The notes: generated by a model not told the origin, from the sequence alone. DNA of 57,118 nucleotides from Deltaproteobacteria bacterium CG11_big_fil_rev_8_21_14_0_20_49_13 (GCA_002796305.1 PCWZ01000049.1:1-57118); one strand, 5' to 3'. Shown: positions 19,270 to 54,866, counted from the stretch's first letter. Numbers and translations are program-made.

Positions 19270-19563
19270 CCGAGTTAACCGATAAGATTTTTTATCTTTT
19301 CCAGCAATTCTTCCGGATCGGCAGAGAGATAGAACTGGCTATTGCAAAGGCCGCGCCAATCGCAATTTTCAGCGTGCCTGCTCTTGCGGAGTTTATTTAA
19401 TGGACGGCGGGCTGATGTAGGCAGGAATGCGGGGAGAGACACAAAACAAGAGTTTGAAGTCGCGCTCCGGGTATTTCCTCGCGCACCCACGAAACGTGAG
19501 TACCCGCGGTCGGTCGGAACAGCGGCTCCTTCGGAACCGAGTTCTCGTCCAGAGAACCTAAAA

Positions 19564-19606
19564 AGTCGAAAGGCCAGCTGTTTACACAGCCGGCCTTTCG
19601 ACTTTG
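19564..19606 (-). terminator. Intrinsic terminator downstream of the tRNA
   Basis: Minus strand reads AAAGTCGAAAGGCC-loop-GGCCTTTCGACTTTT (12-bp stem plus T-run). Confidence 0.65.
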
Positions 19607-19678
19607 TGGGCCTCGAGGGACTCGAACCCCCAGCCAACCGGTTATGAGCCGGTAGCTCTACCATTGAGCTAGAGGCCC
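19607..19678 (-). tRNA. tRNA with CAU anticodon (elongator Met, or Ile2/lysidine type)
   Basis: Manual cloverleaf: GGGCCTC/TA/GCTC-AATGGTA-GAGC/T/ACCGG-CTCATAA-CCGGT/TGGCT/GGGGG-TTCGAGT-CCCTC/GAGGCCC-A. G1-C72 is paired, so it is not an initiator. CCA is not encoded. Confidence 0.85.
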
Positions 19679-19911: not shown

Positions 19912-19939
19912 TTGACAAATCCAAACCTTCAAGTAAATT
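19912..19939 (+). promoter_or_regulatory. sigma-70 promoter candidate (TTGACA-16 nt-TAAATT) for the peptide/rSAM cassette
   Basis: Perfect -35 box. The -10 box has T1, A2 and T6. It lies about 27 nt upstream of the ATG at 19966, with SD GGGAGGA in between. Confidence 0.55.
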
Positions 19940-19965
19940 AACGCCTCAACAAATCGGGAGGAAAA

Positions 19966-20118
19966 ATGGATAGAAAGAAAAAAGAAGATCTGTGCAAATG
20001 CGGTTGCGACCCCAAAGTAACGACCAAAAAGGACAAAAAGAACCAGAAATGGGTGAAGCCGGAGCTTACAGACGTGTCCGGACGTGTAATGGCACAGCCT
20101 TATATCAGATTTACCTAG
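19966..20118 (+). CDS. 50-aa precursor-like peptide with a PqqA-like C-terminal 22 residues
   Basis: Below the ORF-track size cutoff. Own translation: MDRKKKEDLCKCGCDPKVTTKKDKKNQKWVKPELTDVSGRVMAQPYIRFT. Strong SD GGGAGGA 4 nt upstream. Located directly upstream of the PqqD-like and radical SAM genes. Confidence 0.7.
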   Translation: MDRKKKEDLCKCGCDPKVTTKKDKKNQKWVKPELTDVSGRVMAQPYIRFT

Positions 20119-20153
20119 ATCTTAAACGCGGTGTGATGGATATCGTAACGTTT

Positions 20154-20196
20154 CAAGGGGGCGACGTTTATGACGATGCCCCTTTGTTTTATTTTA
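20154..20196 (+). terminator. Terminator/attenuator-like hairpin between the peptide gene and the pqqD-like gene
   Basis: CAAGGGGGC-15 nt loop-GCCCCTTTG (9 bp including one G-U pair), followed by TTTTATTTTA. Confidence 0.45.
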
Positions 20197-20245
20197 AAGC
20201 CCGCCTTCGCCATTAAAATGGCTACGGCGAGGCAAGGAGAAATCT

Positions 20246-20497
20246 ATGGAATTCAAAAAGAACGTTCAGGTGCGGAAAGAAAAGTTTGGAACGGTCATCT
20301 TTGAGACATTAAAAGAGAAGGTCTTTGTTACCAACGAAACCGGTGCTGAAATTATCGAGCGCCTCAAAGAGAAGAAGACGCCGGATGTCATTGTTAACGA
20401 ATTGGCGTCGCTTTACGGAGCATCTAAAGAAGCCATCGCTAATGATGTCAACTGTTTTATCGAAAACATGATCGATCAGGAGGTGTTAGCAAGATAA
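20246..20497 (+). CDS. PqqD-family protein (RiPP recognition element-type peptide chaperone)
   Basis: 83 aa. The pattern FGTVIFETLKEKVFVTNETGAEIIERLKEKKTPDVIVNELASLYG...ANDVNCFIENMIDQEVL is typical of PqqD/MftB-like proteins. Confidence 0.8.
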   Translation: MEFKKNVQVRKEKFGTVIFETLKEKVFVTNETGAEIIERLKEKKTPDVIVNELASLYGASKEAIANDVNCFIENMIDQEVLAR

Positions 20498-20528
20498 GTG
20501 TTCTAGTGCGTGGTTCGGAGAGCTCCGA

Positions 20529-20559
20529 CTAATCACTAATCACTGTTCACTAATCACTG
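20529..20559. repeat. Heptamer tandem repeat (CTAATCA CTAATCA CTGTTCA CTAATCA CTG)
   Basis: Read directly from the sequence. Lies between the pqqD-like and radical SAM genes. Confidence 0.7.
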
Positions 20560-20567
20560 TAGTAAAC

Positions 20568-21548
20568 ATGGAACCCACAAAGAACTTTAACACAACGCCC
20601 GGCATGGCCGGAGAGAATTTTGACGATTTCAAGGCGCCGCTGTTTCTTGCGTGGCAGATAAATTCCGTCTGCAACCTTGGATGCCTCCACTGTTGCGAAG
20701 AGGCCGGCCACCACATTCCGGGAGAGATGACAAGGGATCAAATTTTCACTTTCCTGCATCAGGTCCGCGAGATGGGGATCCCTTACGTTGCCATATCCGG
20801 CGGCGAGCCGCTTCTGCATCCCAACTTCTTCGAAGTGGCAGAGTTCATCCGCGAAGCCGGAATGAGCCTAAAGGTCGAGACCAACGGAGAGTTCATCGAC
20901 GACAAGGTCGTTGATCGTTTTGCCGCGCTCGATTTTAGGTCGGTCCAAATAAGCCTCGATGGCGCGACCGCCGCCACCCATGAGGTCCTGCGTTTAAAGG
21001 GTGACTGGAAAAAATCTTATACCGCCGTAAAAAAACTGGTGGAAAAGGGCGTGACAACGGAGATAGTATTCGTGCCGACAAGTTTTAATATCCATGAAGT
21101 GGGCGAGGCGATAGACATGGCCCATGACCTTGGCTGCTACGGATTTTATACAGGCAAGATAATGCGCATCGGGCGTGCCGCGCTTAACTGGGATAAGTTG
21201 AATCCTACCGAAGAACAATACAAGGCCTTCTTTAAGACCCTCGACGAAAAAACAAAACAATACGAGAACAAGATGAAGGTCTATTACTATCCGTACGATG
21301 TCATCGAAGAGCTCAAATATAGATTGGAAAAGCCATCGGCGAGCCTCTTGGTCGTTCCTAACGGCAATACTAAATTAATAGGGCCGCTTCCCTTTATCTG
21401 CGGCAATGTTAAGGAACAATCGCTTGCGGAAGTTTGGGAACGTTACAAAAAGGCGTGGCGCGAACCCAAGGTCATCGAATTCACAAAGAGGGTCATAAAG
21501 GATCCCAACCTCCTCGCCCAATCAAATAAATGGCAAAACGTATTTTAA
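20568..21548 (+). CDS. Radical SAM enzyme, PqqE/MftC-like peptide-modifying type, with a Cys-poor (truncated SPASM-like) C-terminus
   Basis: CNLGCLHC (CX3CX2C), ISGGEPLL, and a C-terminal PFICGNVKEQSLAEVW resembling the start of a SPASM/Twitch domain. No CX2CX5CX3C motif. Confidence 0.8.
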   Translation: MEPTKNFNTTPGMAGENFDDFKAPLFLAWQINSVCNLGCLHCCEEAGHHIPGEMTRDQIFTFLHQVREMGIPYVAISGGEPLLHPNFFEVAEFIREAGMSLKVETNGEFIDDKVVDRFAALDFRSVQISLDGATAATHEVLRLKGDWKKSYTAVKKLVEKGVTTEIVFVPTSFNIHEVGEAIDMAHDLGCYGFYTGKIMRIGRAALNWDKLNPTEEQYKAFFKTLDEKTKQYENKMKVYYYPYDVIEELKYRLEKPSASLLVVPNGNTKLIGPLPFICGNVKEQSLAEVWERYKKAWREPKVIEFTKRVIKDPNLLAQSNKWQNVF

Positions 21549-22393
21549 GGTTCGTCCGTTACCGTTTTCTGCTATTTGCAGGCCTTCTGCCATATTGCCT
21601 TGGCGCCGTCATTTCGAGGCATAGCGTTCAAGCGTTCGACCTTAAACTCTTTCTTATAGGCCTTGTCGGCATATTTTTTACGCTCGTCGGAGTAGAGGCC
21701 TTCAACGAGTATTTCGACTGGGTGCTGGGGACCGACAGGGTCTTTCAGTTGAACCCAAAGCCTGTCACAAAAAAAAAGTTCTATATAGGTGTTGGGGCCT
21801 TCTTTATAGCCCTTTTGTTCGCGGTATATCTTACATGGCAGGTTGGGGCCGGCATTGCCATTTTTGCCTTGGTCGGTTTTATTGCGGCGGCCGGTTATCT
21901 TGGTCCGCCACTACGGTTCACGTACCGAGGACTTGGCGAGATCGTCATCGCCATTTCGTATGGCCCCGCCATGGTGCTTGGTAGCTACTACCTGCAGACC
22001 GGCCGGATAGATCTGCTTCCGGTCGTTGCATCAGCGTTACCGGCCATCTTTTTATTCTTAATAGCGATAATGAACGAGGTGCCCGATTTTCTGCAGGATA
22101 GCCTTGTCGGCAAGAGGAATATATGCGTAAGGAGCGGCAGGGAAGGGACGGTAACCATATACGGCTTGATGTCGGTCGTTCTCTACATAACTTTGACGCT
22201 GATGGTAATTATTGATCTGTTGCCAAAGATCTCCCTTCTTATCTTGCTAACCATCCCTTTTATGTGGCGCAACTATTACACCGCCAGAACTATGCTGGAG
22301 GAGCCTCCGAATCTGTTCGGTGCTATACGCGGGACCCTGATAGTTTACATCGTTTCCATGGGCGTTCTTATTGTCTCTTACTTGCAAAATTAA
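21530..22393 (+). CDS. UbiA-superfamily (MenA-like) aromatic prenyltransferase, polytopic membrane protein
   Basis: NEYFDWVLGTD (compare MenA NDYFDxxxGxD) and NEVPDFLQDSLVGKRN (compare NNxRDxxxDxxxGKxT). About 8-9 hydrophobic helices. 19-nt overlap with the radical SAM gene. Confidence 0.8.
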   Translation: MAKRILRFVRYRFLLFAGLLPYCLGAVISRHSVQAFDLKLFLIGLVGIFFTLVGVEAFNEYFDWVLGTDRVFQLNPKPVTKKKFYIGVGAFFIALLFAVYLTWQVGAGIAIFALVGFIAAAGYLGPPLRFTYRGLGEIVIAISYGPAMVLGSYYLQTGRIDLLPVVASALPAIFLFLIAIMNEVPDFLQDSLVGKRNICVRSGREGTVTIYGLMSVVLYITLTLMVIIDLLPKISLLILLTIPFMWRNYYTARTMLEEPPNLFGAIRGTLIVYIVSMGVLIVSYLQN

Positions 22394-24000: not shown

Positions 24001-24463
24001 ATGAACGGAGGGCCTTTTACGCGGTCGCCGTCCGCCTTTGGCGGATGGAGGAAAGTCCGGGCTTTAAAGAGCGCCGTAGCGGATAACGTCCGCCATCTCG
24101 ATGAAAATCGGGAGAGGAACAGTGCCACAGAGACGAGTCTTGTCCGGGGACACACACTTAATTCAAGAAGTGTGAATTAATTGTGTGTCCCCGGATGAGG
24201 GTGAAACGAGGTAAACTCTACGGAAAGCAAGGCCAAGCAGGGACACGGGTTGCTCGCCCGTCCGATCCGGCAACGGAGAGGACAATCCCGGGTAGGCCGC
24301 TACTATCTTTATCAGTAACCGCCTTTGCCGCAAGGCTTTGAGCGAGTCAAGCGCTAGCGTTGGTAAAGATGACGAGATGCGAGGCAACTTTGCACCCCAG
24401 ATGAATGATCGCACCCCGGAAGGGGATACAGAACCCGGCTTATTAAAGGCCTTCCGTTCATTT
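24001..24463 (+). ncRNA. rnpB: RNase P RNA, bacterial type A
   Basis: GGAGGAAAGTCCGGGC (P4 5' strand), CAGTGCCACAGAGAC, GGGTGAAACGAGGTAA, and ACAGAACCCGGCTTA (P4 3' strand). P1 pairs ATGAACGGAGGGCCTTT with AAAGGCCTTCCGTTCAT. T-run after the 3' end. Confidence 0.9.
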
Positions 24464-33770: not shown

Positions 33771-34649
33771 ATGGATCTCAAAAAATATCTGTCAGAAAAG
33801 AAGACGTTGGTTGACAAGGCCATTGAAGAGTATTTTTCAAAAGAGTGCGGCGCCTCGCCAAAATTGAAAGAGGCGATGCTTTATAGCCTTCGCGCCGGCG
33901 GAAAGAGGCTACGTCCCGTACTTGTGATGGCCGCATGCGAGGCGTGCGGCGGCAAGGCCGCCGATTCAACGCCGGCGGCTCTGGCCCTTGAGATGATACA
34001 CACCTTCTCACTTGTTCACGACGACCTGCCTGCAATGGACGACGATGATCTAAGGCGCGGTCAGCCGACCAGTCACAAGAAGTTCGGCGGGGCAACGGCC
34101 ATCTTGGCGGGCGATGCGCTCCTTGCGGAGGCGTTTTCGTGCCTTTCGTCGTGCGTCGTGCGTTGTGCGTCATGCGTCCAGATCATAAATGATATCGCTA
34201 ATGCGACAGGTGCCCGGGGTATGACAGGAGGTCAGGAGCTGGACCTCGAGGCCGAAGGAAAGAAGGTCTCTTACGAAGAACTTAAGAACATCCATAAACT
34301 AAAGACCGGAGCATTGATCGAAGTTTCTATTACAAGCGGCGCTAAAGTAGCCGGCGCCAAAGACGATAAACTTTCAACTCTTAAGAAATATGGAGAGGCG
34401 ATAGGACTTGCCTTTCAGATAACCGACGACATCCTTGATGTAGAAGGGACGACGGAACAGCTGGGAAAGCCCGCAAAGAGCGATATAGAGAACGAAAAAG
34501 CTACCTATCCCGCGATATTAGGAATAGAAAAATCCAAAAAACTTGCTAAAGATCTTGTGGATAAGGCCTACTCTGCCCTCGCCGGATTTGATTCAAGGGC
34601 CGATCCTTTGCGCGATATTGCCCGCTACATACTTACCCGTAAGAGTTGA
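33771..34649 (+). CDS. ispA: Farnesyl-diphosphate synthase (polyprenyl synthetase family)
   Basis: First DDLPAMDDDDLRRG and second FQITDDILD Asp-rich motifs. xseB-ispA synteny. Confidence 0.9.
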   Translation: MDLKKYLSEKKTLVDKAIEEYFSKECGASPKLKEAMLYSLRAGGKRLRPVLVMAACEACGGKAADSTPAALALEMIHTFSLVHDDLPAMDDDDLRRGQPTSHKKFGGATAILAGDALLAEAFSCLSSCVVRCASCVQIINDIANATGARGMTGGQELDLEAEGKKVSYEELKNIHKLKTGALIEVSITSGAKVAGAKDDKLSTLKKYGEAIGLAFQITDDILDVEGTTEQLGKPAKSDIENEKATYPAILGIEKSKKLAKDLVDKAYSALAGFDSRADPLRDIARYILTRKS

Positions 34650-47005: not shown

Positions 47006-47147
47006 GGGCACCTCTATAAACCCATTGTTATGTCATTGCGAGGAGCGTCCAGCGACGAAGCAATCTCCATAAATCAAGTGTTTATGGGGGATTGCCGCGC
47101 CCCTTCGGGGCTCGCAATGACAGCGTGAGTAGTTTATAGAAGTGCCC
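47006..47147 (-). mobile_element. 142-bp MITE-like element, family 1, copy C (inverted relative to copy A)
   Basis: The reverse complement equals 31333-31474 apart from one mismatch in the terminal repeat. Confidence 0.8.
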
Positions 47148-48182
47148 TGAAGGTATTATGGAAAGAAAAGTGAACACGAAGAACAAATATGTCATCCCCG
47201 CGAAAGCGGGAATCCAGCCGTTCTCAAGGCCGTAGCGTTCAAGAAGCGAGCACGCAGTTTCATATTCTTCCGTTGTCAGGCGGCGATTTATGACGGGATC
47301 TTCTGCCGCCTTGTGGGCCGGGAAATATTGGCTCATGAAACTAATGTGGGTCTTTGGTGATATTTCTTCGGATATGAACTTAAGCACCTCTTCTGTCCCT
47401 GAAAGCTTGCCGGGTAGAATTAAGTGCCTGATAATAAGCCCTTGTTTGGCGATTCCGTTTTCGTCGAGCTTAAGACCGCCCACCTGACGATACATTTCTT
47501 TAACGGACAAGCGGACGACATCCCAATAATTTGCGGCAGATGAATAGTGTTCGGCAATATCATTAGACGAATATTTAATGTCCGGCATGTAAATATCGAC
47601 CACACCGTCAAGTAGCCGCAACGACTCCATGCCGTCGTATCCGTTCGAATTCCAGACGATGGGGAGATTCATGTGCCCGCTTCTCGACTCCGCTTCGCTT
47701 CGCTCGAAAACTATGCTGCTCGAGCGACCCTGCCGCACAGCAGGGGAGTAGAGAACCGATCTCCTGTTTAGCTTTGCAAGATAAAACCCCGCCAGAAATT
47801 GTGGTACTACATGTGAACCGGTAACTATATTGATATTGTGACAGCCGCGCGCCGAAAGAGATAACATCATCTCCGCAAGCACCAACGGCCCCGCATCGCT
47901 CCCGTTGCCTAACCAGCTTATGGGATAGTTCTGACAGAATTTGCATTTAAGGTTGCATGATCCGAAAAATATCGTCCCGCTCCCCCTTGTCCCTGATATC
48001 GGCGGCTCTTCGCCGGCATGGACGTTGTGACTTGCGACCTTTGCCGTCTTCCCCGTGTGGCAAACGCCCGTTTTCCCCTGAATGCGATCGACCCCACAAT
48101 TTCTAGGGCATAATTTACAAGAACGAAGCGCCGTGTAGGCCAAACCAACCCTTTCTCGTAACTGATCTGAAGAAATGAGCAT
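47082..48182 (-). CDS. Radical SAM protein, PflX-like (COG1313, pyruvate formate-lyase activase homologue)
   Basis: Start taken at the ATG at 48182, because the ORF-track start at 48380 overlaps the OPT gene. CKLCPRNCGVDR...GVC, EEPPISGTRGSGTIFFGSCNLKCKFCQNYPIS. The C-terminal tail runs into repeat elements. Confidence 0.75.
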   Translation of the reverse strand: MLISSDQLRERVGLAYTALRSCKLCPRNCGVDRIQGKTGVCHTGKTAKVASHNVHAGEEPPISGTRGSGTIFFGSCNLKCKFCQNYPISWLGNGSDAGPLVLAEMMLSLSARGCHNINIVTGSHVVPQFLAGFYLAKLNRRSVLYSPAVRQGRSSSIVFERSEAESRSGHMNLPIVWNSNGYDGMESLRLLDGVVDIYMPDIKYSSNDIAEHYSSAANYWDVVRLSVKEMYRQVGGLKLDENGIAKQGLIIRHLILPGKLSGTEEVLKFISEEISPKTHISFMSQYFPAHKAAEDPVINRRLTTEEYETACSLLERYGLENGWIPAFAGMTYLFFVFTFLSIIPSGHFYKLLTLSLRAPKGRGNPP

Positions 48183-48186
48183 ATAG

Positions 48187-48273
48187 CCAGCAAATCTAGC
48201 AAGGCCAGCAAGGCTAGCAATGGGGAAGTTTTTAACCTTGCTTGCATTGCTGGCTTGAAGCCTTGCTGGCCTT
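48187..48273. repeat. Imperfect long palindrome built from 9-mer units (CYAGCAARG)
   Basis: AAGGCCAGCAAGGCT (48201-48215) pairs with AGCCTTGCTGGCCTT (48259-48273). Inner AGCAATG pairs with CATTGCT. Confidence 0.6.
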
Positions 48274-48282
48274 ATGACATTG

Positions 48283-50295
48283 TTATTTTTTAACTCTTCT
48301 GGCATCCCAGAACATATAGTAACAAAGGAGCATGACCATCCCAAGTCCCAGCCAGTTTCCCCAATATCCGTCGTTGGCAAGGTCGGGCAGGATATGCAAG
48401 TTCTTCTCCTGCTCTATCCATCTGATAAGCGCTGTCACAACGCCTATTAAGGCGCCGCCGGCAACAAGACCGGACGAGACAAGAGTTCCCCTCTCAGTAT
48501 ATCTTGCCTCTAATACTTCGTCCTTCTTTGCCGTCTTTCCAACAAGCCATGAGACCGTTGCTCCAACCAAAAGCGGAAAGTTGATCTCAAGCGGCAGATA
48601 GAGACCGAGGCCGACCGCCAAGGGGGCAACCCCAAGCATTTCCATTAATACGGCTATCACCGCGCCCACCGCATATAGGAACCACGGTGCGCCTGTAGAC
48701 ATAAAGCTTCCGATAACGGCCGCCATTGCGTTGGCCTGAGGTGCCGGCAGAGGATGCGGATGTTCCGGAGACGGGGCGTATCCATAGACCTTTGCGAGAA
48801 GGACCATGATAGATGCCGTGACCGCGGCGGCGATTACCGAGCCAAATATGTTCGCGATCTGAACCTTCTTAGGTGTCGCGCCGAACCAATATGATATTTT
48901 AAGTTGCGTTATTAAAGAACCCGACATCGAAAGCGCCGTGCAGACAACGCCTCCTACAAGCAACGCCGCCACCATCCCCTCTTTGCCCGTCACCCCGGCC
49001 TTTGCCATTACAATGATGGTAATAAGAAGAGTAAGCATTGTCATGCCCGAAATGGGCGTCGTACTTATCGTCGCTATCGCGTAGGCCGAGACGCTGTTGA
49101 AGAGGAAGGTTAAGAGGAACGTGGAAACAAGGCCTATAGAAGCAAGAACGAACGGGTTGGATTGCCCGGTCAGGACCGAATATCTGAAATAGCACCATAT
49201 GACAATAAGGTCTACTATGGTCAGGAAAAGGACAAGCGTCATGGGAATGTCGCGCTCGGTCCTTTCAGCTACGCGTTCACCGCCATGCTTGGACCTTGAT
49301 CTTATAACATCGCCCAGGCCCTCAACCGTCGACTTGTATATGATGGGGATGAACTTGATGATGGCCAGTATCCCCGCCATGAATATTGAACCGATACCTA
49401 TCATCCTTGCGTATTTGGAATATATGTCACCGGCGCTCATTGCGGCAAAGGTGGTCCCGCCGCCAAGATCGCCGAAATAGGCTATCATGGGGACCAGCAC
49501 GAACGACGAAAGGATACCGCCGGTCGCCATCATTAAAGTATATCTGATACCTATAATGTAGCCCATTGCGGTTATCGCAGCCCCTGTGCTATTCGAAAAT
49601 ACAACCTTGAACTTGTTCGTAAGTATAGAGCAAGAACCTATTATGTCGGTCGAAAATGTCTCGCGCCATGCCCTGAGCGATACACAGAAAAGGTCATAAA
49701 CTCCACCGATCAACATTGTATAGACCAGAACAAGCGCGTCGCGTCCGCCTTTTCTGCCGGCCACGAGTATCTCTGCCGTGGCGGTCGCTTCGGGGAACGG
49801 GAACTTACCATGCATGTCGGCCACAAAATATCTGCGAAGAGGTATCAATAGCATCACGCCAAGGACAGAACCCAAGAAAGGGATCAGAAACAGCTGAAAT
49901 GTATTTGTATATTGGTCGAGCCCCATGACATATAGGGCCGGCAGAACAAAGACCGCGCCGCCGGTTATTATGCCTGAGGTTGAGCCGATGGCTATTATCA
50001 TCACGTTCTCGAGCAACGTGTTCCGGCGTTTGAACATGTAAGAAATGCCTACAGAAAGTATCGCGATAGGTATCGCCGCCTCGAGCCCCGTTCCTATCTT
50101 AAGCGTCAGATATGCAATGGCCGCAGAAAAGATAATGCACATTATGATGCCCAAGAACACCGATCTGAACGTTACTTCCGCAACATCGTCGCCGCTTTTG
50201 ATCATCGGCACATATTTTTCGCCCGGCTTCAACTCGCGCCGCGCATTCTCGGGCAACCCAACATGTTCTTCAGCCATACTAACCCCCGTTATCAA
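48283..50295 (-). CDS. OPT-family oligopeptide transporter
   Basis: 670 aa with about 16 hydrophobic helices. The N-terminal ELKPGEKYVP...EVTFRSV segment is typical of bacterial OPT proteins. Confidence 0.8.
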   Translation of the reverse strand: MITGVSMAEEHVGLPENARRELKPGEKYVPMIKSGDDVAEVTFRSVFLGIIMCIIFSAAIAYLTLKIGTGLEAAIPIAILSVGISYMFKRRNTLLENVMIIAIGSTSGIITGGAVFVLPALYVMGLDQYTNTFQLFLIPFLGSVLGVMLLIPLRRYFVADMHGKFPFPEATATAEILVAGRKGGRDALVLVYTMLIGGVYDLFCVSLRAWRETFSTDIIGSCSILTNKFKVVFSNSTGAAITAMGYIIGIRYTLMMATGGILSSFVLVPMIAYFGDLGGGTTFAAMSAGDIYSKYARMIGIGSIFMAGILAIIKFIPIIYKSTVEGLGDVIRSRSKHGGERVAERTERDIPMTLVLFLTIVDLIVIWCYFRYSVLTGQSNPFVLASIGLVSTFLLTFLFNSVSAYAIATISTTPISGMTMLTLLITIIVMAKAGVTGKEGMVAALLVGGVVCTALSMSGSLITQLKISYWFGATPKKVQIANIFGSVIAAAVTASIMVLLAKVYGYAPSPEHPHPLPAPQANAMAAVIGSFMSTGAPWFLYAVGAVIAVLMEMLGVAPLAVGLGLYLPLEINFPLLVGATVSWLVGKTAKKDEVLEARYTERGTLVSSGLVAGGALIGVVTALIRWIEQEKNLHILPDLANDGYWGNWLGLGMVMLLCYYMFWDARRVKK

Positions 50296-52209: not shown

Positions 52210-54567
52210 TTATCTTAATACCGCGTTTGGGTGGTCTACGGCGAATGAATTGCCGCCGTTCATTGTAGATATGGCGGTGTATGTCTTCTGCAGGAGTTGA
52301 ACGGCGAACGCGACGTTGTGAATACCTACGCTCCCGTCATTAGCTATCAAATTATGATCAAAGACCGCCCTCCTCACGTCAATAGGGCTTGCGTTCTGTT
52401 TAGCCTGCGAGGCGTAGGTAAGACCGGCGACCGTTATCGTTCCGTCGGCAGCCTGCGTTGTGCCCGCGGCGACGTTCACTGTGTCTATGGATTTAATCTT
52501 ATTGGTAAGGGCAAGTAGCAACCCCTTGTTCTCGTCCTGGATGCCGCCAATAGTTCCATTACCATCATAATCGGCGCGCGCGGTTCGGTTAAGGGAGGTC
52601 AAGCCTGTATGACACGGCGTACATGTGGCGGTAAACTCGTTCCCGCCACTAGACATCGCCCACGTGTGCCCGCCAAGCGTCCTATATCCGGCCTCTTCTG
52701 CGGTTGGGGCGGTCCCCATGTGACAGGTCACACATTTATTATTTTCGCTTGATTTTGATGCGTCGCCGGAGCCGTTCGCCAGCGTGAACAGGCTCGATGA
52801 ATGGAATGAATTCTCTGTGAGCGTAAAATCGTATGAACTGTTCGAGAAATGCGTGACGGCGCCAAGGCCTTCCAGCACAAAGGACTGCGGATTATGATGG
52901 ATCTGGCGGAAATACTGCGTTGCAAGCTGATCTATCGTTTCGCATGCCACATCGGCTGTACCGTCACCGTTGGAATCGCAGTCTATCTCGCCCTTGACAT
53001 AATAGCCATCATGACATGTGTAACAGACCGCCGCCTCGCCGGCATCTACCTGTGTCCCTGCATCATCTAACATTGTAACAACACCTTTGCGCCGCAACTG
53101 TGTTGAGTTGTTGCCGCTTACGGAAGGGAGCCCCGTCATCGGATCGGCCGCCGTGGAATGTGGGTCGTGACATGCCTGGCAGCTGACACCGACATCGTTA
53201 GATGTCTGGGCGGTGACCGTGTCGCCTTCGACATATTGAATAAACCCGGCCGTTGTATGACAACGGGCACACCCGGCGCCGGGCCACGAGGACAGGCGAT
53301 ATCTACCGGCGTTGTTCTTTATGCCCGTTTCATTATGTGCCGCAACCTTCCATTCCGCCTCTTGTGAATGGCATTTGCCGCAGATACCTGAATCCCATTT
53401 GCTAAAGGCAATTCGCGAGGCGTCACCATTATGATCGGCGCCGGGGCCATGACAATTTTCACACTGCACATTAGTTAAGGGTGCAAGTGTCGGATTATCA
53501 CTTATGAACTGATCCCATGTGGTCCCGGTAGAAGGAAAACTGTAACCGGCGTCCGTTACAAGGTCATCGAAACCGCCGTTAACCGCCGTCGCCGCCGTGT
53601 CATATCCCACCGTATGGCATTCCCAGCAATATGGTTGCGGGGCCTTTGACTTATAAGAGCCTGTCGCCTTCTGGAAGATAACGGAATGGCCGGTCTCCTC
53701 CCATTCGGACGTGGTGTCGGGTTCTTCCGTCCCATTATGGCAGGCCCCGCACTGGCCGACGCTTTCGTCAGGTGTTGTTCCATCTATCGTTCCCGCCCCG
53801 ACATATGTGCTCGCAGTGACCGTGATCGCGCCGTTCGTGGCGGCTGATACTGATGTGTAAGCTATCGTATAGACACCATCGATATCGGGTGTAAAATTGG
53901 GGATCTCAAGCGCCGAATTAAGATTTCCGGTGTCTTCAAATATCGCCGAAGACCCTGCCGCAGGCGTGAGTGTCCATGTCCAGTCGGTAACAGCTGTGCT
54001 TGCCGTGCTTGAGTTGGCTTTGAGTGAGGGGCCGGCAAGATAGACCTTTTCACCGACACCGACATTTGTAAGACCGGTGGTGGTCCTTATTTCGTTGCCG
54101 GCATCAAAAAGATAGACCGTAAATGTCGTGATGCCGGAATTATTATTTGCGTCTGTCGCCGTCAGTCGAAATATCAATACCGCATCATCGCGTGATACCG
54201 GCAGCGCCTGCCAGCGATACTGATCTGATGCATTTAAAATCGCCGGCATTGCGGGTGCGCCGAACGTGAACGTCTGTGATACGGCGTCACCTGCAACCGT
54301 AACCGCCGGACCCGATATCTGCTCCCATTCATATCCTGTTATAGCGCTACCATCTGCAGTACTGCTCGTCGCGCCTGAAAGTATCAGGCCGGCGGCACTG
54401 AAATTTGCCTTGTAGGCCGCTTGTGAGTGATAGGTGAACGTGTCGATACCGGTGCTGGCGGTTATCGCCGCGGTCACGTTGTTTGCCGGAGTCTCGCTCC
54501 CGGATGAACATGCACAAAAGAACGCCAATTGCAGAACAAAGATCGCTAAAATAATTCTTTTGAACAT
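52210..54567 (-). CDS. Large nonahaem c-type cytochrome lipoprotein with N-terminal Ig/PKD-like domains
   Basis: Nine CxxCH motifs (CGACH, CWECH, CENCH, CGKCH, CARCH, CQACH, CYTCH, CVTCH, CTPCH). Leader MFKRIILAIFVLQLAFFCAC. The start at 54567 forms TGATG coupling with the upstream stop (the ORF-track start is 54594). Confidence 0.8.
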   Translation of the reverse strand: MFKRIILAIFVLQLAFFCACSSGSETPANNVTAAITASTGIDTFTYHSQAAYKANFSAAGLILSGATSSTADGSAITGYEWEQISGPAVTVAGDAVSQTFTFGAPAMPAILNASDQYRWQALPVSRDDAVLIFRLTATDANNNSGITTFTVYLFDAGNEIRTTTGLTNVGVGEKVYLAGPSLKANSSTASTAVTDWTWTLTPAAGSSAIFEDTGNLNSALEIPNFTPDIDGVYTIAYTSVSAATNGAITVTASTYVGAGTIDGTTPDESVGQCGACHNGTEEPDTTSEWEETGHSVIFQKATGSYKSKAPQPYCWECHTVGYDTAATAVNGGFDDLVTDAGYSFPSTGTTWDQFISDNPTLAPLTNVQCENCHGPGADHNGDASRIAFSKWDSGICGKCHSQEAEWKVAAHNETGIKNNAGRYRLSSWPGAGCARCHTTAGFIQYVEGDTVTAQTSNDVGVSCQACHDPHSTAADPMTGLPSVSGNNSTQLRRKGVVTMLDDAGTQVDAGEAAVCYTCHDGYYVKGEIDCDSNGDGTADVACETIDQLATQYFRQIHHNPQSFVLEGLGAVTHFSNSSYDFTLTENSFHSSSLFTLANGSGDASKSSENNKCVTCHMGTAPTAEEAGYRTLGGHTWAMSSGGNEFTATCTPCHTGLTSLNRTARADYDGNGTIGGIQDENKGLLLALTNKIKSIDTVNVAAGTTQAADGTITVAGLTYASQAKQNASPIDVRRAVFDHNLIANDGSVGIHNVAFAVQLLQKTYTAISTMNGGNSFAVDHPNAVLR

Positions 54568-54866
54568 CACTCTACCCCATTGGTGCCGTGACAAGAGGCA
54601 CAGCTGGAAAGCCCTTCTGTCTCCGTCATATGTCTTATCGCGGCAAGATTTAGACCTGTGCCGGTGCGGTCGTTCTGGTGGATATTATCTAGGTTGTGGC
54701 AGTCAAAGCAGGTGGATTTCCCCCAACCCGTCGTGTGCTCTGCCTGAGTTAAGAGTAGCCCTGCATCCGTTCCGGCAAGGTCGCCGTAGTCCTCGCCCTG
54801 AATGGTTTCCTGACTCCCGCAACCGGCGAGCATTACAAAAAGGGCTATGAACATAAATATCTTCAT
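54567..54866 (-). CDS. Small dihaem c-type cytochrome lipoprotein
   Basis: Lipobox MLAGCGS. CFDCH and CASCH motifs. Confidence 0.75.
   Translation of the reverse strand: MKIFMFIALFVMLAGCGSQETIQGEDYGDLAGTDAGLLLTQAEHTTGWGKSTCFDCHNLDNIHQNDRTGTGLNLAAIRHMTETEGLSSCASCHGTNGVE

Follow-up and report, generated by a model that had tools for sequence, protein, structure and literature searches.

Pyrroloquinoline quinone (PQQ) and mycofactocin are, to our knowledge, the only cofactors made from ribosomal peptides with a PqqD and radical S-adenosylmethionine (radical SAM, rSAM) core, and both are soluble. MenA and UBIAD1 prenylate quinone head groups, and we know of no enzyme of the UbiA superfamily that acts on peptides. 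Prenylated members of the RiPPs (peptides that are ribosomally synthesised and then modified post-translationally) arise in cyanobactin and ComX-type pathways through soluble ABBA-type or ComQ-type prenyltransferases, which act on hypervariable cores. A 57,118-nucleotide stretch from Deltaproteobacteria bacterium CG11_big_fil_rev_8_21_14_0_20_49_13 (PCWZ01000049.1), here called the window, contains four co-directional open reading frames (ORFs) at 19966-22393, which encode a 50-aa peptide, an 83-aa PqqD-type protein, a 326-aa rSAM enzyme and a 287-aa UbiA-type prenyltransferase. All four ORFs were recovered where a first-pass annotation of the same DNA had placed them. It is highly probable that they represent a genuine, undescribed pathway that modifies and prenylates a peptide. 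Our main conclusion, to which we assign a probability of about 0.6 and whose chemistry we infer, is that the cassette is the operon of a RiPP-type pathway leading to a prenylated, membrane-bound product, likely a quinone-like redox cofactor for quinone-dependent respiratory complexes.

The cassette was found to be widespread. One genome per GTDB species was scanned, which yielded 127 species with a relative of the rSAM enzyme, and the best 80 of these 127 were analysed as 20-kb loci. The four genes were seen together in further assemblies as well as in the 80 species-level genome loci, and they came in two gene orders. About 170 loci, spread over more than 10 phyla, contained the gene set, one of them in the cultured Rhodopila globiformis, and this conservation shows the cassette to be more than a chance arrangement. 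Homologues of the rSAM enzyme with 60-70% identity occurred in Planctomycetota, Omnitrophota and other phyla, and the called genes of three such relatives were again a small ORF, a PqqD gene, an rSAM gene and a UbiA gene. The closest genome was a groundwater Elusimicrobia metagenome-assembled genome, with an rSAM identity of 92%.

The two gene orders define two cassette types, both of which contain the PqqD-type protein. Type 1 has the order peptide-PqqD-rSAM-UbiA, as in the window, and its rSAM enzymes are 56-92% identical to that of the window. Its hosts are Elusimicrobiota, Planctomycetota (including Brocadiaceae, Phycisphaerae and Pirellulales), Omnitrophota, Aminicenantia, Calditrichaceae, Lentisphaerae and Hydrogenedentota. 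Type 2 has the order PqqD-rSAM1-UbiA-rSAM2-peptide-rSAM3, with rSAM enzymes 41-47% identical to that of the window, and is hosted by high-GC Elusimicrobiota, Burkholderiales, Steroidobacteraceae, Acidocella and Rhodopila. The three type-2 paralogues showed 36-44% identity to each other and were about equally distant from the type-1 enzyme. A complete type-2 cassette with three rSAM genes was present in the cultured purple bacterium R. globiformis (locus L092, 8668-13023; NHRY01000224). Apparent rSAM-UbiA fusion ORFs were rejected as artefacts, one containing a run of N (L069) and the other an internal deletion or misassembly (L075). Two antisense ORF "families" of high-GC loci (x5 and x14) were spurious, being overlaps with the genes for the rSAM enzyme and UbiA.

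The peptide ends in the nine residues MAQPYIRFT before the stop codon, and these showed no amino-acid change across 71 distinct DNA versions, which were compared over their last 22 codons, while every synonymous codon was in use (six for Arg and four each for Thr, Pro and Ala). A fixed core whose synonymous codons vary is direct evidence that the peptide is translated and under very strong selection at the protein level. Upstream of the core, the leader followed the consensus W-x-[KT]-P-x-[LM]-E-[DE]-V-S, in which P, V and S were present in 71/71 versions, W in 70/71 and L in 58/71; its N-terminal part varied freely among the homologues. The WxxPxL portion resembles, as we take it, the YxxPxL motif of lasso leaders. 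The invariant aromatic residues of the core are Tyr46 and Phe49. The peptide is basic, with neither a signal peptide nor a transmembrane segment, and had no match at all in NCBIfam or Pfam. Each locus held one precursor copy, and core diversity was nil.

Homologues of the peptide were detected in about 75 genome loci beside the cassette, in 110 database proteins and in 77 metagenome loci. All 110 database peptides ended in VMAQPYIRFT and were annotated as hypothetical proteins. The same ending, directly followed by the stop codon, was found in every genome locus with enough flanking DNA, and genome loci in which no peptide was detected were mostly short contigs ending near the cassette. The small ORFs of the three cross-phylum relatives ended in ...EDVS..[VI]MAQPYIRFT. 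Conservation of the small ORF beside rSAM/UbiA pairs, on which the first-pass proposal depended, was thus seen for every pair with enough flanking DNA. A metagenome scan with the back-translated core alone returned at least 120 matches, mostly from soils, and 77 of the 80 metagenome loci analysed carried PqqD, rSAM or UbiA homologues. In one of the three exceptions the DNA ended just 3' of the peptide gene. In another (L135, 912-1067) the precursor gene was followed by an ORF resembling an insertion sequence, and the third (L171, 1074-1217) was an orphan precursor gene with a slightly divergent leader (..IDEVTERVMAQPYIRFT) on a high-GC contig; neither had cassette enzymes on the available DNA. 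We also observed a C-x-C-x-C motif (CKCGC) in the leaders of the Elusimicrobia lineage, located in the window at 19993-20007 (peptide residues 10-14), and a C...CSC motif in the leader of one Planctomycetaceae locus. Besides the window, the loci noted with such Cys motifs were L007, L008 and L042. The motifs, which may be a metal-binding or redox feature, were absent from most other leaders.

The 83-aa protein was confirmed as a PqqD-type RiPP recognition element (RRE), matching Pfam PqqD with E=1.2e-11 and 45.2 bits against a cut-off of 23.4. Its best NCBIfam model was the lasso PqqD chaperone (2e-9; 37.6 bits against 70), followed by PqqD (6.8e-8), and it stayed below the cut-offs of the PqqD equivalog TIGR03859 (32.3 against 46) and of MftB TIGR03967 (18.6 against 33). 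By analogy with PqqD-like B1 proteins, which bind lasso leaders with nanomolar affinity (PMC5067487), it probably binds the WxxPxL leader motif.

In the rSAM enzyme, the SAM-cluster motif C35-x3-C39-x2-C42 and the sequence G78-G79-E80-P81 were invariant in 48 sequences, and the enzyme looks catalytically intact from its sequence. The only conserved cysteines among the 48 orthologues were C35, C39, C42, C43 and C278. The match to Pfam SPASM was 0.025, with 15.3 bits against a cut-off of 21.5, and the cysteines of a SPASM/twitch auxiliary cluster were absent. The lone conserved C-terminal Cys of the type-1 enzymes is C278, and the SPASM motif was missing from all three type-2 paralogues. As far as we know, every cross-linking RiPP maturase of the clan that has been characterised contains auxiliary Fe-S clusters. 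MftC (TIGR03962) was the best NCBIfam model, with 135.4 bits against 265 and only the N-terminal 210 residues aligned, and PqqE (TIGR02109) gave 77.3 bits against a cut-off of 381. The closest solved structures by sequence were SkfB, BlsE and PqqE. An AlphaFold2 model with a pLDDT of 88 retrieved SkfB (1e-17, TM 0.70), SuiB (5e-15), PqqE (4e-14) and, at rank 33, anSME (2.5e-10) in Foldseek. The predicted structure is a SPASM/twitch-like fold minus the ligands of the auxiliary clusters. The description of this enzyme as a CX3CX2C protein of the PqqE/MftC type therefore holds for the motif, the N-terminal core and the fold only, and "PqqE-type" was an overstatement as the auxiliary-cluster cysteines are absent. 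The enzyme did not fall within a known non-RiPP clade, with scores far below the cut-offs for AhbD (121/500), NirJ (116/515), MoaA (64/325) and BlsE (60/400), and with SkfB, SuiB and PqqE as the nearest structures.

The fourth protein matched Pfam UbiA at 3.9e-20 and contained at least five strongly hydrophobic segments, as expected of the polytopic prenyltransferase originally proposed. The proposed overlap was also correct, with the UbiA ATG lying 19 nt before the end of the rSAM gene; the rSAM and UbiA genes overlapped in many other loci too. Two Asp-rich motifs, NEYFD..G.DR and N..PD..QD.LVGK.N, were at least 95% conserved in 79 orthologues, and the enzyme looks catalytically intact as judged from its sequence motifs. 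The best match in the PDB was human UBIAD1. All MenA models scored below cut-off (93 bits against 277; TIGR00751, 48.2 against 102), the equivalog cut-offs being 102 for TIGR00751 and 264-555 for the PRK06080 variants. Orthologues of the cassette protein are annotated by JGI as 1,4-dihydroxy-2-naphthoate (DHNA) octaprenyltransferase. The subfamily was discrete, with 30 of 1.84 billion representatives at E<=1e-30 (about 30 clusters at 50% identity), beyond which a continuum of weaker UbiA-family matches followed.

Comparison with described systems showed partial likeness to several of them. The cassette shares with PQQ biosynthesis a small ribosomal precursor, a conserved core that contains Tyr, a stand-alone PqqD chaperone, an rSAM enzyme of the PqqE clan and conservation of cofactor grade. 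It differs in the lack of the E-X3-Y motif of PqqA, the residue four positions before Tyr46 being Met42, and in PqqE and PqqD scores below the equivalog cut-offs, with an rSAM enzyme that has no SPASM cysteines. It also adds an integral-membrane UbiA protein, which leads us to expect a lipid-bound product in place of a soluble one. With mycofactocin it has in common the combination of peptide, PqqD-like chaperone and rSAM enzyme, an invariant C-terminal core and, as proposed here, the principle of a peptide-derived redox cofactor, and MftC was the best model for the rSAM enzyme. However, the peptide ends in ...PYIRFT and not in the ...CGVY of MftA, prenylation would take the place of glycosylation, the MftC and MftB scores fell below cut-off, and the hosts are anaerobic candidate phyla and soil Proteobacteria instead of Actinobacteria. 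In agreement with the first-pass annotation, no domain of pqqB/C/F or mftD/E/F was present among the annotated genes of the window (Pfam). Neither pqqB, pqqC and pqqF/G in the called genes of the related loci inspected, nor mftD, mftE and mftF in related loci, were found.

The prenyltransferase resembles the MenA/UBIAD1 step of menaquinone biosynthesis in its MenA-type motifs N-x3-D-x5-D and D-x3-D and in its position, outside the window, beside genes for long-chain polyprenyl-diphosphate synthases. In contrast to that step, it is always coupled to the peptide/rSAM module, is not linked to men or mqn genes and forms its own subfamily. The lasso chaperone model and the WxxPxL leader recall the B1 proteins of lasso peptide pathways, but the chaperone score was below cut-off and the cassette has neither a lasso cyclase nor a B2 protease. 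The GeoRSP system (PqqD-family TIGR04302 and rSAM TIGR04303) likewise combines a short rSAM protein of about 325 aa, aligned over residues 22-292, with a small PqqD partner. The scores were 100.6 against 400 and 14.9 against 100, and GeoRSP has no UbiA gene and an rSAM enzyme that is a SPASM protein. In cyanobactins, ComX and prenylated lanthipeptides a ribosomal peptide also receives an isoprenoid group. The prenyltransferase of the cassette is instead a membrane-embedded member of the UbiA superfamily and its core is invariant, which sets it apart from these systems, including the soluble prenyltransferase of prenylated lanthipeptides (PMC12715784).

Among the generic features of a RiPP locus, a short precursor gene by modifying enzymes, a variable leader, a conserved core and an RRE were seen. 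Assignment to a known family (PQQ, mycofactocin, AhbD/NirJ or MenA) was rejected, as no equivalog model in NCBIfam or Pfam was above cut-off for any of the four proteins, and every test of membership in a standard PQQ or mycofactocin pathway failed. In a full-text literature search, with subscription-only papers outside its scope, no description of the cassette, no pairing of PqqD with UbiA and no mention of the core motif was found; co-mention of "UbiA" and "RiPP" occurred in a single paper, incidentally, and no statement on missing menaquinone genes in the carrier phyla was found. The first-pass view that no described system has this gene combination was borne out in the searched literature, NCBIfam and Pfam. 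A RiPP module that includes an enzyme of the UbiA superfamily seems to be without precedent.

The gene neighbourhoods of the cassette elsewhere pointed to membrane quinones. Neighbouring ORFs were clustered into families, and the recurrent families were annotated. Across both types, 27 loci had a polyprenyl-diphosphate synthase gene beside the cassette, with heptaprenyl, solanesyl and octaprenyl synthases as best matches (long-chain type). In about 15 type-1 loci an nqr-type operon (nqrA-F) was located directly upstream; in NCBIfam, NqrB and NqrC were above their cut-offs and NqrF scored 293.5 against 295. The cassette was even inserted between nqrE and nqrF in two loci (L042 and L046), on the same strand and with gaps of about 10 nt. 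We estimate that roughly 1% of random genes would lie no more than 10 kb from a polyprenyl-diphosphate synthase gene or an nqr operon. Both linkages are far above this expectation, though the loci are not phylogenetically independent. Sets of Fer4_11, NrfD and molybdopterin oxidoreductase genes were nearby in 5-9 loci, together with genes for molybdenum cofactor biosynthesis and molybdate transport. In four proteobacterial type-2 loci, the C, A and B genes of a succinate dehydrogenase/fumarate reductase abutted the cassette, and a C4-dicarboxylate TRAP transporter (DctPQM), a 2-oxoacid:ferredoxin oxidoreductase or a NiFe hydrogenase was encoded near the fumarate-reductase-linked cassettes. The polyprenyl-diphosphate synthase, nqr, NrfD-type and fumarate-reductase partners are all proteins that make, reduce or oxidise membrane quinones. 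These contexts support the membrane-anchored, quinone-like or lipidated product that had been postulated from the window alone. A membrane histidine kinase and a response regulator were also recurrent near the cassette. Among the clustered neighbour families, no recurrent transporter, immunity or protease gene was present, and no oxidase, hydroxylase or MenG/UbiE-type methyltransferase was linked to the cassette.

Several other features of these neighbourhoods were noted. The A subunit of some nqr-type operons had an RnfC-like C-terminal region with two [4Fe-4S] clusters (L042, 4112-13484; L046, 4154-13489; L024, 3161-13270; L005, 2076-11296), and the complex that these operons encode appears to be an unusual hybrid of Nqr and Rnf. 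Next to the cassette, nqrF was always followed by the gene for a conserved protein of about 150 aa that matched neither Pfam nor NCBIfam (L046, 13034-13489; L042, 13032-13484; L024, 8720-9154; L011; L036). This protein may assist the Nqr-like complex or the pathway as an accessory factor. In type-2 Elusimicrobia (L058, L062, L070, L084 and L086), genes for an alpha-oxoamine-synthase-like aminotransferase of about 412 aa (PF00155) and a polyprenyl-diphosphate synthase preceded the PqqD gene and may represent an extension of the pathway. Identification of this recurrent neighbour of about 412 aa as PqqB or PqqC was rejected, since it is a class I/II aminotransferase. On a Brocadiaceae contig (L043, 7572-8759), a second UbiA gene beside mobB lay about 3.4 kb downstream of the cassette UbiA; it was more MenA-like (157 bits for PRK05951, and 91 against 102 for TIGR00751).

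The proposed route to a quinone-like cofactor would begin with translation of the basic 50-aa precursor in the cytoplasm, in keeping with the purifying selection on its protein sequence. The PqqD-type protein would bind WxxPxLEDVS and present the core MAQPYIRFT to the rSAM enzyme, as members of the PqqD/RRE family are expected to do. The 5'-deoxyadenosyl radical of this enzyme would abstract hydrogen from the core and remodel it without oxygen, possibly by a C-C or C-X cross-link or a rearrangement at the invariant Tyr and/or Phe. In type 2, three paralogous rSAM enzymes would split this work. The translationally coupled UbiA protein would then act on the cytoplasmic side of the membrane, where it would join a polyprenyl chain to the modified aromatic group. 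The adjacent long-chain polyprenyl-diphosphate synthase would be the source of this chain in many genomes. Housekeeping peptidases may, more speculatively, trim the peptide. The invariant core, the lack of an export signal and the lack of recurrent transporter, immunity or protease genes argue for a cofactor-like product rather than an antibiotic-type RiPP. The 60-70% identity of the type-1 rSAM enzymes across phyla and the housekeeping neighbours in the window also indicated cofactor-like behaviour. In the most specific form of this proposal, oxygen-independent radical chemistry would excise a head group from MAQPYIRFT, and its polyprenylation would give a ribosomally encoded respiratory carrier of electrons in the membrane. 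We put this form forward tentatively, with the odds somewhat against it.

Several observations weigh against a quinone-like respiratory cofactor. The neighbours in the window itself are housekeeping and not respiratory genes, and the respiratory link is guilt by association in other, mutually related lineages. A classical quinone head group needs a hydroxylase, an oxidase, a methyltransferase and a protease, none of which is in the cassette. The invariance of nine residues exceeds that of PqqA-like precursors, so most of the peptide may stay in the product and yield a lipopeptide. The rSAM enzyme is without auxiliary Fe-S cluster cysteines and keeps C278, and the pattern of a single retained Cys is also seen in radical SAM peptide epimerases. 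The Proteobacteria that host type 2 normally make ubiquinone. Because these type-2 hosts normally make ubiquinone, R. globiformis is documented to make ubiquinone, menaquinone and rhodoquinone, and one Brocadiaceae locus has a second, more MenA-like UbiA, the product is not simply "the" quinone of the carrier cells.

Two of these points, the single conserved cysteines kept without auxiliary clusters and the invariance of all nine residues, speak for the view, fairly unlikely in our judgement, that the product is a largely intact prenylated lipopeptide and not a redox carrier. The rSAM enzyme would then epimerise or cross-link the core and UbiA would lipidate Tyr or another residue. Anchored in this way in the inner leaflet, the peptide would partner membrane complexes such as Nqr in a structural, assembly or regulatory role. 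Invariance of all nine core residues fits retained residues that dock on a conserved protein partner, and the embedding of the cassette inside nqr operons is consistent with such a role, as is the lack of a recurrent protease, oxidase or hydroxylase gene in the cassette. An enzyme that keeps C43 and C278 without auxiliary-cluster cysteines resembles the epimerases YydG and PoyD, which use Cys as hydrogen donor. On the other hand, UbiA-superfamily enzymes are not known to us to act on peptides, and the linkage is to several quinone-dependent complexes (Nqr, NrfD-type and Frd/Sdh) and to a polyprenyl-diphosphate synthase, not to one complex. Moreover, no such complex is adjacent in the window or in many type-2 loci.

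An alternative oxygen-independent route to a known isoprenoid quinone, for example (demethyl)menaquinone, with the peptide as substrate or scaffold and UbiA as the MenA equivalent, is improbable. The affinity of UbiA to the MenA models and UBIAD1 and the JGI annotation of its orthologues would agree with it, and the adjacency of fumarate reductase fits a low-potential quinone. R. globiformis contains menaquinone MK-9 besides ubiquinone UQ-9 and rhodoquinone RQ-9/10, which is unusual for an alphaproteobacterium (PMC12542754), and has menaquinone at the QA site (PMC9640540). However, no plausible route from MAQPYIRFT to a naphthoquinone could be drawn, no MenG/UbiE-type methyltransferase is linked, UbiA scored far below the MenA cut-offs within a subfamily of its own, and the Brocadiaceae locus has a separate, more MenA-like enzyme.

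We consider it very improbable that the cassette makes an ordinary specialised metabolite, such as a secreted lipidated antimicrobial or signalling peptide. The set of precursor, RRE and rSAM enzyme is typical of RiPP natural-product clusters, and prenylated RiPPs such as cyanobactins and ComX do exist. Yet a core identical across more than 10 phyla and rSAM enzymes that remain 60-70% identical are unlike arms-race metabolites, and the single precursor copy per locus without core diversity, the absence of a leader-cleavage protease, an exporter and an immunity gene, and the housekeeping or respiratory contexts also contradict this view. That the genes are mere neighbours, UbiA being a divergent MenA, the rSAM/PqqD pair maturing something else and the small ORF incidental, would be allowed by enzyme assignments that are all based on homology, but is hardly credible given a linkage that survives two gene orders and dozens of lineages, overlapping rSAM/UbiA reading frames, a core-only reciprocal search that returned the enzymes in 77/80 cases, and a small, discrete UbiA subfamily.

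Features of the cassette in the window are collected in Table 1.

Table 1. Positions of the cassette features in the window
Feature	Position	Strand	Basis or remark
Promoter-like site TTGACA-16-TAAATT	19912..19939	+	10/12 consensus positions; candidate only
Shine-Dalgarno sequence GGGAGG, 4 nt 5' of the peptide ATG	19956..19961	+	Direct sequence reading
Precursor peptide gene, 50 aa, MDRKKKEDLCKCGCDPKVTTKKDKKNQKWVKPELTDVSGRVMAQPYIRFT and stop	19966..20118	+	ORF; homologues beside the cassette elsewhere
Leader motif WVKPELTDVS	20050..20079	+	Column conservation; likely PqqD/RRE docking site (putative binding)
Invariant core M-A-Q-P-Y-I-R-F-T and stop codon	20089..20118	+	71 distinct DNA versions
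GC-rich hairpin (20154-20186), then U-run UUUUAUUUU	20154..20195	+	Folding against shuffles; candidate partial terminator/attenuator
PqqD-family RiPP recognition element (peptide chaperone), 83 aa	20246..20497	+	Pfam PqqD 1.2e-11
Radical SAM enzyme, 326 aa, CX3CX2C and GGEP	20568..21548	+	Pfam Radical_SAM 1.7e-23
UbiA-superfamily MenA/UBIAD1-like integral-membrane prenyltransferase, 287 aa	21530..22393	+	Pfam UbiA 3.9e-20

The first-pass annotation had given the cassette its own promoter candidate, and the TTGACA-16-TAAATT site is indeed present. Sites of this type were not enriched, with 2 found against 3.4 expected in shuffled sequence, and the site was dropped as support because its frequency was not above the shuffled expectation. 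At the next promoter candidate of that annotation, 22407, TTGACA is present with a poor -10 hexamer, and the site was not called. Both promoter assignments are weak. The 50-aa gene itself was found as described, preceded by its Shine-Dalgarno sequence. The region 20116-20250 folded with -48 kcal/mol (z = -3.8), and none of 200 shuffled sequences was as stable. The hairpin within it, whose place after the precursor gene recalls pqqA operons, could be a partial terminator that yields an excess of precursor transcript. Loci in which the peptide gene directly adjoins pqqD did not share this hairpin. The pqqD stop and the rSAM start are separated by 70 nt, within which the sequence TAATCAC(T) occurs three times, at 20530, 20537 and 20551 (20530-20558, +), just 3' of a short palindrome (TCGGAG-AG-CTCCGA, 20514-20527). 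The rSAM ATG in the window is preceded by no obvious Shine-Dalgarno sequence.

Housekeeping genes flank the cassette in the window. The genes before it include tolB/exbBD, murI, a CtpB-like protease, phosphofructokinase and tRNA-Met, and those after it encode a Zn-ribbon protein, RNase H, RNase P RNA, LolA and FtsK. The cassette region is flanked by the tRNA-Met(CAT) gene (19606-19678, -) and the class A RNase P RNA gene (153 bits; 24009-24457, +). A 129-aa ORF (19275-19664, -) overlaps the tRNA-Met gene and is probably spurious. At a greater distance, a 292-aa polyprenyl synthase (33771-34649, +) is encoded beside xseB and xseA, the classic ispA arrangement; it is the sole isoprenoid-chain enzyme of the window, and its gene does not adjoin the cassette. 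Also noted were an OPT oligopeptide transporter (48283-50295, -) and a weak radical-SAM-like ORF (47082-48380, -) whose Pfam match of 1.6e-5 did not reach the cut-off. A 794-aa multihaem cytochrome with MtrC/c7/c554-like domains (52210-54594, -) suggests that the organism of the window respires.

Taken together, the cassette belongs to a known kind, that of peptide-derived cofactor pathways. If our interpretation is correct, it would represent the third cofactor family made with a PqqD and radical SAM core and the first that is passed to a membrane prenyltransferase. The chemistry of the UbiA superfamily would extend to peptide-derived acceptors, and a branch that does its work with no auxiliary Fe-S clusters would be added to the PqqE clan. 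The nine-residue core provides an exact search key for genome annotation. Direct tests are accessible, given the cultured photosynthetic carrier R. globiformis and a type-1 cassette of only four genes. Should the product be a redox lipid, it would be a new entry in the short list of respiratory quinones, and it could explain how Nqr, polysulfide/NrfD-type reductases and fumarate reductase are fed in poorly understood anaerobic phyla and in some soil Proteobacteria. Proof that the product is a respiratory carrier would make the finding categorically new. The product would then define a previously unknown class of isoprenoid, quinone-like cofactor for Nqr-type, NrfD-type and fumarate-reductase complexes, used by anaerobic candidate phyla (Elusimicrobiota, Omnitrophota, and Planctomycetota including relatives of anammox bacteria) and by soil Proteobacteria.

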